DNA of 36,518 nt from a virus. Taxonomy: Duplodnaviria > Heunggongvirae > Uroviricota > Caudoviricetes. The notes beneath the pieces are model-generated. The model did no database searches. It was not told the origin of the DNA and saw nothing but the letters and a program-made list of their open reading frames with translations. The stretch is taken from IMG/VR virus record IMGVR_UViG_2534681766_000005. One strand, given 5' to 3'. Each line of letters starts with the position of its first letter. The stretch's first letter is position 1. The position numbers and the translations under genes were made by a program. Below are positions 5,204-36,404 of the stretch, in pieces.

Positions 5204-5215
5204 CACGCTACCGCC
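5204..5215 (-). promoter_or_regulatory. ops element (RfaH-dependent antitermination signal, JUMPstart) in waaQ leader
   Basis: Plus strand cacgctaccgcc = reverse complement GGCGGTAGCGTG on the waaQ-sense strand, in the untranslated leader upstream of waaQ. Confidence 0.8.
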
Positions 5216-5566
5216 CCAGGCTCAACAGCTACCTGAATACTGATACCGCACTGATATTGACGCGCTAGTGTATCACTTCTTTCGCGGCAATCCGACCCGA
5301 ATGATTTTTAAGCACATTGTTGATTTTCAATAAAGAAATCAATCAAATAAAATCATTAGCAACCATATTCTTTCACTGTTGCTCTGCGATTCCTTCCTGC
5401 ACGTACAGCAGAAATCAATGAATCGCATAAAAATACAAAAAAAGTATAGATGTTCAGCAAGAATTGGCGGGTAAATTGCTATTTAAGTCAAAAACGGGAA
5501 AAGTAATGGTAAAGCCACAGCTAAATACATAGAATCCCCAGCACATCCATAAGTCAGCTATTTACT

Positions 5567-12117: not shown

Positions 12118-12131
12118 TTCTCCCCTAAACG

Positions 12132-12161
12132 GTCAGGCAGAAACGTCTGCCTGACGCTTTT
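12132..12161. terminator. bidirectional hairpin terminator shared by convergent slmA and retron ret
   Basis: gtcaggcag-aaacgt-ctgcctgac perfect 9-bp stem followed by gctttt on the plus strand; lies between slmA stop (12117) and ret stop (12163). Confidence 0.7.
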
Positions 12162-12162
12162 C

Positions 12163-13122
12163 TTACCATGCAACCAGCATTCGCTTTACACTCTCTCTCG
12201 CCTGTTGAAAGGCCTCATCCTCAGGGTTGATTTGCAATAACCAGTTTATTCTTCCCTGCAAAGCATAAAGATACGCCGTTGCCTGTGCGTGGAGATCGCC
12301 AGAAGGATCAAGTTCACCACGATGACTAAGATGCGAAATAACGCCATATTTTTGGCACAAATGCACCTCCTGACGCAGCGCCCGGCGCGCTTCACGGGCA
12401 AGCTGTGGCTTGTGATTAACAACAATCCCGGTTACTTGCTGGCGCTTACAGGCAGCTATCAGGCAGCCTTTGCGTTTATTGAGGCTCAGGCCCAGCTCCG
12501 CTAACAATCCGCACACTTTATTTTTAACCTGGCGGGCATTGAAGTGACCTGAAAAGGTCATGTCATCGCAGTAGCGGGTGTAGGTAATTCCCCGAGCCTG
12601 ACACCATTCCCCTATGCGTTCATCAAAACGGCGCATCACAAGATTGGAAATGGCTGGCGAAGTTGGTGCCCCCTGCGGTAACGCGTCGTTATAACAACAA
12701 ATCCAGGTCAGCATGGTTACCACATTACGTGGCAACTGGGCCTGGCGAAACACACGCCAGACCTGTAACCAGCTAATGCTATCGAAAAAGTTTTCGATAT
12801 CGAGTTTCAGGATCTGCGGCTGTTGGCAGTGTGGCTGCGCGTTGCTGACGATTGGGCAACCTGGTCGGTAGGCTGTAGCAAAAGGGGAAAGCGGAAATTG
12901 TGAAAGGACGTTCTTAAGAATGTTGCGCTGTACGGTTTTGAGCAAGTAATCAGGGGCTAACACCAGCCGCTGACCACCGTGGCGTTTAGAAAGAATAATG
13001 CGTCGGTAATGGCGTCCGGCATGATTACTGAGCGCATGCAGTCGCTGTATTTCTTTATCGGCGCTCCAGCCCGGCGAGCCGAACAAATCGAGCGCCAGAA
13101 GGGTTGTCCGGGTAGCATCCAT
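12163..13122 (-). CDS. ret: retron-type reverse transcriptase (RT only, 319 aa)
   Basis: ORF with retron RT hallmarks: LDIENFFDSI, QGAPTSPAISNLV, YTRYCDDMTFSG (YxDD), VTGIVVNHK; preceded by an msr/msd-like structured region; ORF track adds 4 codons from a GTG at 13134. Confidence 0.9.
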   Translation of the reverse strand: MDATRTTLLALDLFGSPGWSADKEIQRLHALSNHAGRHYRRIILSKRHGGQRLVLAPDYLLKTVQRNILKNVLSQFPLSPFATAYRPGCPIVSNAQPHCQQPQILKLDIENFFDSISWLQVWRVFRQAQLPRNVVTMLTWICCYNDALPQGAPTSPAISNLVMRRFDERIGEWCQARGITYTRYCDDMTFSGHFNARQVKNKVCGLLAELGLSLNKRKGCLIAACKRQQVTGIVVNHKPQLAREARRALRQEVHLCQKYGVISHLSHRGELDPSGDLHAQATAYLYALQGRINWLLQINPEDEAFQQARESVKRMLVAW

Positions 13123-13154
13123 TCCACTCTCCACATCACGGCGGCCAAAAGAGG

Positions 13155-13348
13155 CGCCAACAGCGGCAATACCATTAAACCATCCCGAAGGCGCGTAACT
13201 GTACTGAGCGCGTCAGCGCGACGTACGCGAAGCGTACTCAGGTACAATGAAGCGACTTTGGGTATATGGACATACTACTGGCGTTAAGTCAGCGACTCGC
13301 CGACCCTCCCGGCACAAAAGGCCGGAAACGCTATTGCCACTGCTGGCG
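13155..13348 (-). ncRNA. msr-msd: retron msr-msd region, bounded by inverted repeats a1 (13333-13348) and a2 (13155-13170)
   Basis: 16-nt inverted repeats (CGCCAGCAGTGGCAAT / ATTGCCGCUGUUGGCG, two G-U wobbles) flank short hairpins (e.g. CCGGC..GCCGG at 13310-13326) and a dyad-rich segment at 13201-13245; directly upstream of ret on the same strand. Confidence 0.65.
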
Positions 13349-13419
13349 AAAGCAGATTAACACGATATCTTGAAGCGCATCACGCTGCGCACAGCAAAAA
13401 CCCTGCACAGCGCATATTT

Positions 13420-34974: not shown

Positions 34975-35069
34975 GGAAGATCGTCGTCTCCGGTGAGGCG
35001 GCTGGACTTCAAATCCAGTTGGGGCCGCCAGCGGTCCCGGGCAGGTTCGACTCCTGTGATCTTCCGCCA
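34975..35069 (+). tRNA. selC: tRNA-Sec (selenocysteine, UCA anticodon)
   Basis: 95-nt sequence GGAAGATCGTCGTCTCCGGTGAGGCGGCTGGACTTCAAATCCAGTTGGGGCCGCCAGCGGTCCCGGGCAGGTTCGACTCCTGTGATCTTCCGCCA, the canonical E. coli selC product with long variable arm. Confidence 0.97.
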
Positions 35070-35231: not shown

Positions 35232-36404
35232 ATGGCTCTAACCGATATACAGATCAAACGTGCAAAACCACAAGACAAGCCATACACATTGAACGATGGA
35301 CAAGGTCTGTCATTGCTTATCAATCCCGATGGCTCGAAAGGCTGGCGTTTCCGTTTCCGGTTTGCAGGGAAAGCGCGGTTAATGTCATTTGGCAGCTACG
35401 ACTTAGTAAGCCTCGCAGAAGCACGTGAGAAGCGTGATATCGCCCGTAAGCAGGTTGCTAATGGCATTGACCCGGTAGAGGAACGCAAAGCTTTAAGACT
35501 CGCCCAAAAGCTATCAACAGAAAATTCTTTCGAAGCAATATGTCGAGAATGGCATACCAACAAAGCAGACCGCTGGACTGTGGCCTATCGAGAAGAAATC
35601 ATTAAGACATTCGAGCAAGATGTCTTCCCGTTCATTGGTAAACGTCCTATCAGTGAAATCAAACCATTAGAACTGCTTGAAGTATTGCGACGAATAGAGA
35701 AACGAGGAGCACTAGAGAAGACCAGAAAAGTGCGCCAAAGATGCGGTGAGGTCTTTCGTTATGCAATCATAACTGGCCGAGCAGAATATAACCCAGCACC
35801 TGATTTAGCTATCGCTCTGGCCGTTCCTAAGCAAAAACACCACCCATTTTTATCAGCTGAAGAGTTACCTTATTTTATTCGGGATTTGGAAGCATATACC
35901 GGAAGCATCATCACGAAAAATGCGACGAAGATTATGATACTTACTGGTGTAAGGACTCAAGAGATACGCTTTGCAACATGGAGCGAGGTTGACCTTGAGA
36001 AAGGTATTTGGGAAATTCCTGCAGAACGGATGAAGATGCGTAGGCCTCATATTGTTCCTCTTTCTATTCAAGTAATAGAACTCTTTAAGCAGCTCAAGCC
36101 TATCACTGGCCATTACCCATTTATTTTCATTGGCAGGAATAATCGTAGCAAACCAATCTCAAAAGAAAGTGTTTCACAAGTAATTGAGTCGATTGGTTAC
36201 AAAGGACGCGCCACTGGTCATGGGTTCCGACATACCATGTCGACAATACTGCATGAGCAAGGATTTAACAGTGCCTGGATTGAAATGCAATTAGCGCATG
36301 TTGATAAAAATAGTATTCGTGGCACATATAACCATGCATTGTATTTGAAAGGTCGTAAGGAGATGCTATGTTGGTATGCCAACATTTTGTATCCCCTTGT
36401 ATAA
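35232..36404 (+). mobile_element. P4-type tyrosine integrase (390 aa) of a selC-associated genomic island
   Basis: ORF MALTDIQIKRAKPQDKPYTLNDGQGLSLLINPDGSKGWRFRFRFAGKARLMSFGSYDL... with C-terminal catalytic region (GHGFRHTMST..., RGTYNHA); ~160 bp 3' of tRNA-Sec; visibly AT-richer than flanking core genes. Confidence 0.9.

Follow-up and report, generated by a model that had tools for sequence, protein, structure and literature searches.

Introduction

The retron Ec107 (Retron-Eco5) was described in 1992 in E. coli ECOR35, between pyrE and slmA (ttk) (Herzer, Inouye & Inouye 1992; PMC6868368). It "replaces a palindromic 34 bp in an intergenic region", lacks mobile-element features, and codes for a reverse transcriptase (RT), RT-Eco5, with an unusual YCDD box (PMC6868368). 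The length of its msDNA, 107 nt, is given by the name of the retron and by the literature (PMC6868368). The msDNA is branched and linked to RNA through a 2'-5' bond (PMC6868368, PMC8989520), and the length of the Ec107 RT-DNA depends on RNase H1 (PMC8989520). Ec107 adjoins orotate phosphoribosyltransferase (PMC7736814), and the lack of an accessory gene in the Ec107 branch is a known peculiarity (Mestre et al. 2020, PMC7736814). Millman et al. omitted Ec107 from their defence assays (bioRxiv 10.1101/2020.06.21.156273). A 2026 survey recognizes a clade2_Ec107like group without accessory modules and provides an "Ec107_like" covariance model of its msr/msd (bioRxiv 10.64898/2026.05.14.725207).

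Two other retron groups are relevant for comparison. Retron-Ec86 (Eco1), whose RT is only 24% identical to that of Ec107 (supplement of PMC6868368), shares with it the a2/a1 stem, a branching G in a UAGC-like context facing a template G, RT-bound msr hairpins, an msd hairpin that is copied to msDNA, and trimming by RNase H1. Ec86 differs in carrying an effector pair and in its msd, a simple 86-nt hairpin that can be replaced freely; in Ec107 no effector adjoins the RT, the catalytic box is YCDD, and the tip of the msd is branched (Y-shaped). Type III-A retrons (e.g., Mx162) form a sister RT clade that joins Ec107 at a common node of the RT tree (PMC7736814). They carry PRTase-like and other accessory genes, whereas at the locus studied here pyrE is an ordinary housekeeping gene.

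Here, we analyzed a 36,518-nucleotide stretch of DNA (the window) in which an initial annotation, made by reading the letters, had drawn attention to a dense nested dyad at positions 13201-13245. We find, with a probability of roughly 0.93, that the dyad forms the three-way junction at the apex of the msd of retron Ec107 (Retron-Eco5), encoded on the minus strand. The element is one already known since 1992, with the dyad as its msd tip.

Locus and reverse transcriptase

The locus is defined by two features:
12163-13122, minus strand: retron reverse transcriptase, 319 aa (Pfam RVT_1, PADLOC, translation)
12118-13419, minus strand: the retron insert as a whole (1302 bp), flanked by the stop codons of slmA (12117) and pyrE (13420)

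The RT matches Pfam RVT_1 (3.6e-21) and is matched from end to end by the PADLOC model RT_Ec107-like (E=7.6e-132). A total of 74 PADLOC retron RT models match, the second-best being those of type III-A retron RTs (RT_III-A, E=5e-94). The translation contains NAQPH (the NAXXH motif of region X), VTG (region Y), and YCDD (the YXDD catalytic box), and residues N94, A95, H98, Y184, C185, D186, D187, V230, T231, and G232 are invariant in 20 RT homologues. The gene order is dut-slmA, RT, ncRNA, pyrE-rph, with coaBC, dut, and slmA on the plus strand, and the RT, then pyrE and rph, on the minus strand. Homology to retron-less E. coli breaks at 13419, directly after the pyrE stop codon. The empty site of K-12 MC1061 (L092, 866-901) holds a 36-nt palindromic slmA-pyrE spacer, tatgacGCCGGATGActtTTCATCCGGCgagtttct, which is replaced here by the insert. 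The insert is present in 382 of the 5426 complete E. coli genomes (~7%), once per chromosome and at 90-100% identity; E. coli copies, for example that of EPEC E2348/69 (L001), differ by up to ~6-10%. The RT is annotated in those genomes merely as a "reverse transcriptase family protein".

In a comparison by position, size, and RT, no difference from the published Ec107/Eco5 was detected. Both elements occupy the same position between pyrE and slmA (ttk), both replace a short palindromic spacer with an insert of ~1.3 kb that holds just msr-msd and one RT, both code for a 319-aa RT with a YCDD box, and both are free of prophage or mobile-element genes nearby. Because position, size, RT length, and YCDD box agree with the published retron, we identify the locus as Ec107; the match to the ECOR35 element itself, as well as the msDNA ends given below, would follow from indirect evidence. 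A full-text literature search with 20-mers of the dyad returned no match.

No associated effector gene was found at the locus, the neighbours of the retron being slmA and pyrE. A role of pyrE as the effector was rejected, since 5425 of 5426 E. coli genomes have the gene whether or not they carry the retron, and since relatives elsewhere do not have a PRTase neighbour. The missing effector does not bear on membership of the classically defined retron class.

Several other elements were observed in the window. A 10-bp GC-rich hairpin followed by a T-run is located at 12132-12155 (plus strand), right after slmA, inside the insert and overlapping the stretch just beyond the RT stop; it may substitute for the displaced bidirectional terminator. 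A tRNA-Sec gene (selC, 34975-35065) is directly followed by a 390-aa P4-type tyrosine integrase (35232-36404) with Arm-DNA-bind_3, Phage_int_M, and Phage_integrase domains, an arrangement resembling the beginning of an island or prophage that is cut by the window end. A JUMPstart RNA element (5204-5242, minus strand; Rfam RF01707, 55 bits) is presumably the leader of the LPS-core (waa) operon. In an Rfam search of the window at the gathering threshold, only tRNA-Sec and JUMPstart were matched, and no retron family.

Organization of the non-coding RNA

A 22-nt inverted repeat (arms 13327-13348 and 13155-13176) encloses the ncRNA region, 32 nt upstream of the RT ATG and on the same strand as the RT. 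The following features were assigned, in transcript order:
13354-13362, minus strand: putative promoter element of the extended -10 type (TG-n-TAATCT), 6 nt upstream of a2 (read by eye)
13332-13348, minus strand: a2, the 5' arm of the 17-bp stem closing the ncRNA (inverted repeat; covarying helix)
13331, minus strand: predicted branching (priming) G, context AAUA-G-C, opposite G13172 (conservation)
13286-13326, minus strand: msr, two RNA hairpins at 13326-13308 and 13306-13286 (RNAalifold and pair counts)
13180-13269, minus strand: full msd stem-loop, the template RNA, whose complement is the msDNA stem-loop (RNA and DNA folds)
13201-13245, minus strand: three-way junction at the msd apex, i.e., the dyad (GUAC/GUAC outer stem, hairpin A, and hairpin B)
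13155-13171, minus strand: a1, the 3' arm of the closing stem (inverted repeat; covarying helix)
13173-13279, plus strand: predicted msDNA-Ec107, 107 nt, starting CATTAAACC (5' end by analogy, 3' end by published length)

The ncRNA of 203 nt folds at -93.6 kcal/mol (z=-6.0) into the closing stem, the two msr hairpins, and the long imperfect msd hairpin with the dyad at its apex. The tip of the second msr hairpin, GGCGAGUCGCC, is highly conserved. The initial annotation had placed the dyad in a putative msd segment, and the dyad does lie inside the ncRNA bracketed by a2 and a1, directly upstream of a retron RT and in the part that serves as a template. It had also been said to lie between a1 and a2, nearer to a2. 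The first half of this statement stands; in classical usage, however, the dyad is nearer to a1 (the 3' arm, 13171-13155) than to a2, and the arms appear to have been numbered in transcript order, the reverse of that usage.

Among the 57 related loci described below, G13331, G13172, A13332, and U13171 are each kept in at least 55. From this conservation, G13331 is the predicted priming G at the 3' end of a2, and its arrangement with G13172 is the geometry known for retron Ec86. By analogy, G13173 is predicted to be the first templated base. According to the 1992 abstract on Ec107, msDNA-Ec107 reportedly branches from the 18th G of a 75-nt RNA. Counting from 13348, G13331 occupies position 18, and an RNA of 75 nt would overlap the predicted 3' end of the DNA by 6 bp, which is consistent with the predicted ends. 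As DNA, the predicted msDNA (13173-13279) folds with z=-3.75, with 0 of 200 shuffles folding as well.

A consensus promoter scan called no sigma-70 promoter upstream of a2; elements similar to the putative extended -10 element (TG-n-TAnnnT) are found upstream of a2 in relatives. At the other end of the ncRNA, the 3' part of a1 (13145-13168, minus strand) forms a small hairpin followed by CCUCUUUUGG, which the terminator scan calls terminator-like, and T-runs of this kind are also located 3' of a1 in L002 and L003. It is more plausible that the whole a2/a1 stem and the U-run together serve as a leaky terminator separating the ncRNA from the RT start. If so, RT levels would be held low relative to the ncRNA.

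Layout and stability of the dyad

The plus strand at 13201-13245 reads GTACTGAGCGCGTCAGCGCGACGTACGCGAAGCGTACTCAGGTAC (45 nt), letter for letter as quoted in the initial annotation, and the nested dyad claimed there is present exactly as described. On the transcript (minus) strand, its helices are as follows:
13245-13242 with 13204-13201: outer stem GUAC/GUAC
13237-13232 and 13228-13223: hairpin A, GUACGC, loop UUC, GCGUAC
13219-13216 and 13211-13208: hairpin B, GCGC, loop UGAC, GCGC

The 5' GUAC (13245-13242) is followed by C and then UGA before hairpin A; GU and C separate hairpins A and B, and UCA stands between hairpin B and the 3' GUAC (13204-13201). Folded as DNA, the 45-mer adopts a Y-shaped junction in both its minimum-energy and its centroid structure. 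The minimum-energy fold of the 45-mer alone as RNA is one elongated imperfect hairpin rather than two hairpins.

The energy of the 45-mer is unexceptional. Its fold has z=-1.26 as DNA and -1.32 as RNA, with 19-20 of 200 dinucleotide shuffles equally stable. When every 45-nt segment along the 36.5-kb window is scored for stability, it falls within the top 1.5%, and there are ~83 separate places at least as stable. A stand-alone stability test, with z of about -1.3 and ~83 places folding as well, is therefore uninformative; stability by itself does not set the 45-mer beyond chance, and the significance of the dyad must come from context and comparison.

A different picture was obtained with larger units. 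The msd hairpin (93 nt) has an RNA fold of -36.3 kcal/mol (z=-3.25) and a DNA fold of -22.9 (z=-4.04), and the msd segment is stable both as RNA and as DNA, with z from -2.8 to -4.0. Structure prediction for the RNA and for the single-stranded DNA, which the initial annotation had named as a check, thus returns a stable msd hairpin, as opposed to the value of about -1.3 for the 45-mer alone. The dyad is significant only within these larger units: the 93-nt msd hairpin, the whole ncRNA, and the covariation that follows.

Conservation of the msd apex

RT homologues were gathered, their loci retrieved, and 17 Enterobacterales ncRNAs aligned. From these 17 relatives, RNAalifold independently predicts a2/a1, the two msr hairpins, the msd stem, GUAC/GUAC, and hairpins A and B. 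Hairpin A pairs in full (100%) in these sequences, and 3 of its 6 pairs have compensatory changes. The 17-sequence Enterobacterales alignment was then turned into a covariance model and searched in the RT loci, where it matched in 57 (E 1e-57 to 2e-8), each time directly upstream of the RT. The 57 loci span two phyla and come from Enterobacterales and from Bacillota, the latter contributing ~40.

Across the whole structure, 92% of cells in the 57 loci are paired, compared to 32-44% with partners slid by 1-3 columns, these pairing percentages being biased somewhat upward because the 57-sequence alignment was fitted to the structure of the model. Double changes occur at 51 of 56 pairs. The a2/a1 helix has compensatory changes at 16 of its 17 pairs, and the msd lower stem is 86.8% paired, with double changes at 8 of 8. 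At the apex, the four pairs of the GUAC/GUAC outer stem are kept in 57, 56, 55, and 54 of the 57 loci. Pairing stands at 98.2% in hairpin A and at 93.8% in hairpin B, and every pair of the two hairpins (6 and 4, respectively) shows compensatory changes. The observed pairing and covariation were reached by 0 of 500 shuffles. These results leave next to no chance that the dyad is an accidental, functionless palindrome in GC-rich sequence. The shuffle z of the 45-mer, only about -1.3, is what such a palindrome would give, but compensatory changes at each of the 10 pairs in hairpins A and B, the near invariance of GUAC/GUAC, and the failure of any of the 500 shuffles to match the observed pairing or covariation are not.

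The nested architecture proposed in the initial annotation, an outer stem enclosing inner hairpins, is the one recovered by RNAalifold and by covariation in the 57 loci. Its outer stem had been drawn with 8 pairs, and of these the GUAC/GUAC part is conserved, while the additional UGA/UCA pairs are Watson-Crick in just 43% of cells across relatives and belong to the lineage of this window only. They are already broken in EPEC E2348/69. The ncRNA of that strain (L001, 3536-3729, minus strand) is a 94%-identical E. coli variant in which CUGAG on the 5' side of the junction has become UUAAG, with hairpins A and B and both GUAC intact; changes beside a1 reduce the extended a2/a1 pairing from 22 to 17 bp.

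The raw segments of the 57 loci follow the pattern GTAC-N4-GCACRY-triloop-RYGTGC-N1-5-variable hairpin-N1-4-GTAC, from which E. coli Ec107 departs in hairpin A, where it has GTACGC/GCGTAC. From Enterobacterales to Bacillota, the msd apex in these aligned segments is kept in sequence as well as in pairing. A sequence-conserved apex is unusual for an msd, which is generally treated as freely replaceable.

The genomic setting of the relatives differs between groups. At RT identities of 68-86% (e.g., Pseudocitrobacter), an Ec107-like RT and ncRNA occupy the same slmA-pyrE gap (L082, L084-L087, L091, L002, and L003), while in Leminorella-like contigs (L088-L090) they lie between cyaY and cyaA. No mobility genes were found adjacent to the retrons of the slmA-pyrE and cyaY-cyaA relatives, and this residence suggests long occupancy or vertical descent, not recent insertion. 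The Bacillota loci have unrelated housekeeping neighbours. No effector was found beside the RT in the slmA-pyrE relatives, the cyaY-cyaA relatives, or the Bacillota loci.

The distribution of the dyad also bears on readings that have nothing to do with reverse transcription, namely an intrinsic terminator, an attenuator, or an intergenic palindrome of the REP type. In their favour, the dyad stands in GC-rich intergenic sequence, the retron displaced a palindromic, bidirectional terminator-like spacer, and many places in the window are equally stable. Yet the dyad has no T/U run after it and is not called by the terminator scan, and it lies within the a2/a1 bracket, 25 nt from a1. Moreover, it co-occurs with the RT in 57 loci that have unrelated neighbours and belong to two phyla, and it is absent from retron-less E. 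coli. We regard a terminator or REP-like element as extremely improbable.

Wobble pairs in RNA and DNA helices

A G-U pair in RNA becomes a C-A mismatch in the cDNA, and an A-C mismatch in RNA becomes G-T in DNA. Covariation alone cannot tell the template from the copy, but wobble pairs can. The share of G-U wobble was counted for each helix in the 57 loci:
a2/a1 (RNA only): 7.3% of cells
msr hairpin 1 (RNA only): 13.7% of cells
msr hairpin 2 (RNA only): 13.3% of cells
msd lower stem: 1.1% of cells
msd GUAC stem: 0% of cells
msd hairpin A: 0.3% of cells
msd hairpin B: 1.0% of cells

Overall, G-U is found in 8 of ~1200 cells of the msd helices, counts that are not phylogenetically independent, and A-C in the msd helices is also at ~1%. 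The near absence of G-U wobble from the msd implies that the DNA copy would have to fold too, and its Watson-Crick-only helices, as read from the alignment, fit selection on the RNA template and the DNA copy alike. In the initial annotation the dyad had been likened to the long imperfect palindromes that form the DNA stem of msDNA. It proves to be the tip of the msd hairpin, and the near absence of G-U supports a fold in DNA. What the comparisons made here show directly is the anatomy of the ncRNA, which retron the locus holds, and that the fold is conserved, covaries, and is Watson-Crick-only in character.

The dyad might matter as an RNA structure only, by positioning or pausing the RT or by stabilizing the ncRNA, with the DNA fold being incidental. 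In favour of this, the msd hairpin folds significantly as RNA (z=-3.25), and a purely Watson-Crick RNA stem is automatically mirrored in its complement. On the other hand, G-U at 7-14% in the RNA-only helices vs. 0-1% in the msd is unexpected if just RNA pairing were selected. In addition, part of the Ec107 msd has been swapped for antisense or donor sequences, and msDNA was still made that worked as antisense or as an editing donor (PMC6868368; bioRxiv 10.1101/2021.05.11.443596). A role confined to RNA is therefore improbable. Since the msd of Ec107 can be replaced in this way, the conserved apex is also unlikely to be required for synthesis, and its conservation more likely reflects a later role of the msDNA.

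Proposed synthesis of the msDNA

With the dyad as the msd apex of Ec107, msDNA synthesis would proceed as follows, the priming step, the msDNA ends, and the RNase H trimming being modeled on published retron biochemistry, including that of Ec107. The transcript would start a few bases upstream of 13348, and a2 (13348-13332) would pair with a1 (13171-13155), presenting the 2'-OH of the conserved G13331 to the RT encoded at 13122-12163. Copying by the RT would begin at about 13173, pass through the dyad, and end at about 13279, and the template would be removed by RNase H. The DNA of ~107 nt, still joined to the msr RNA, would then refold into a long imperfect hairpin, whose tip would be the mirror image of the dyad: a GTAC/GTAC stem with two small hairpins.

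Discussion

For a retron specialist, the locus holds nothing unexpected. The analysis settles an annotation: the unlabelled RT found between slmA and pyrE in ~7% of complete E. coli genomes is that of retron Ec107. The locus also resembles the members of clade2_Ec107like in having a stand-alone RT and ncRNA with no recurrent accessory gene. That clade is mostly found in Bacillota (host-associated samples), with few Enterobacterales, and covariance model R1 of this work recovers the same distribution. In the literature on the clade (PMC7736814; bioRxiv 10.64898/2026.05.14.725207), we did not see the GUAC / GCACRY...RYGUGC junction or the wobble contrast set out explicitly, and they may be implicit in the published model. 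A by-product is a clean comparative case of a contrast in G-U wobble, which the msd helices avoid and the msr and a1/a2 helices tolerate.

The sequence-invariant msd apex bears on what Ec107-like retrons do. The invariance of GUAC and of GCAC...GUGC across two phyla hints at a sequence-specific partner. As a tentative and rather doubtful suggestion, the GTAC-bearing branched DNA junction might be a specific recognition site, its partner being either a host protein encoded elsewhere or a trigger from a phage (for example, a methyltransferase or nuclease). If this were true, it would provide a handle on how the effector-less Ec107-like retrons act.
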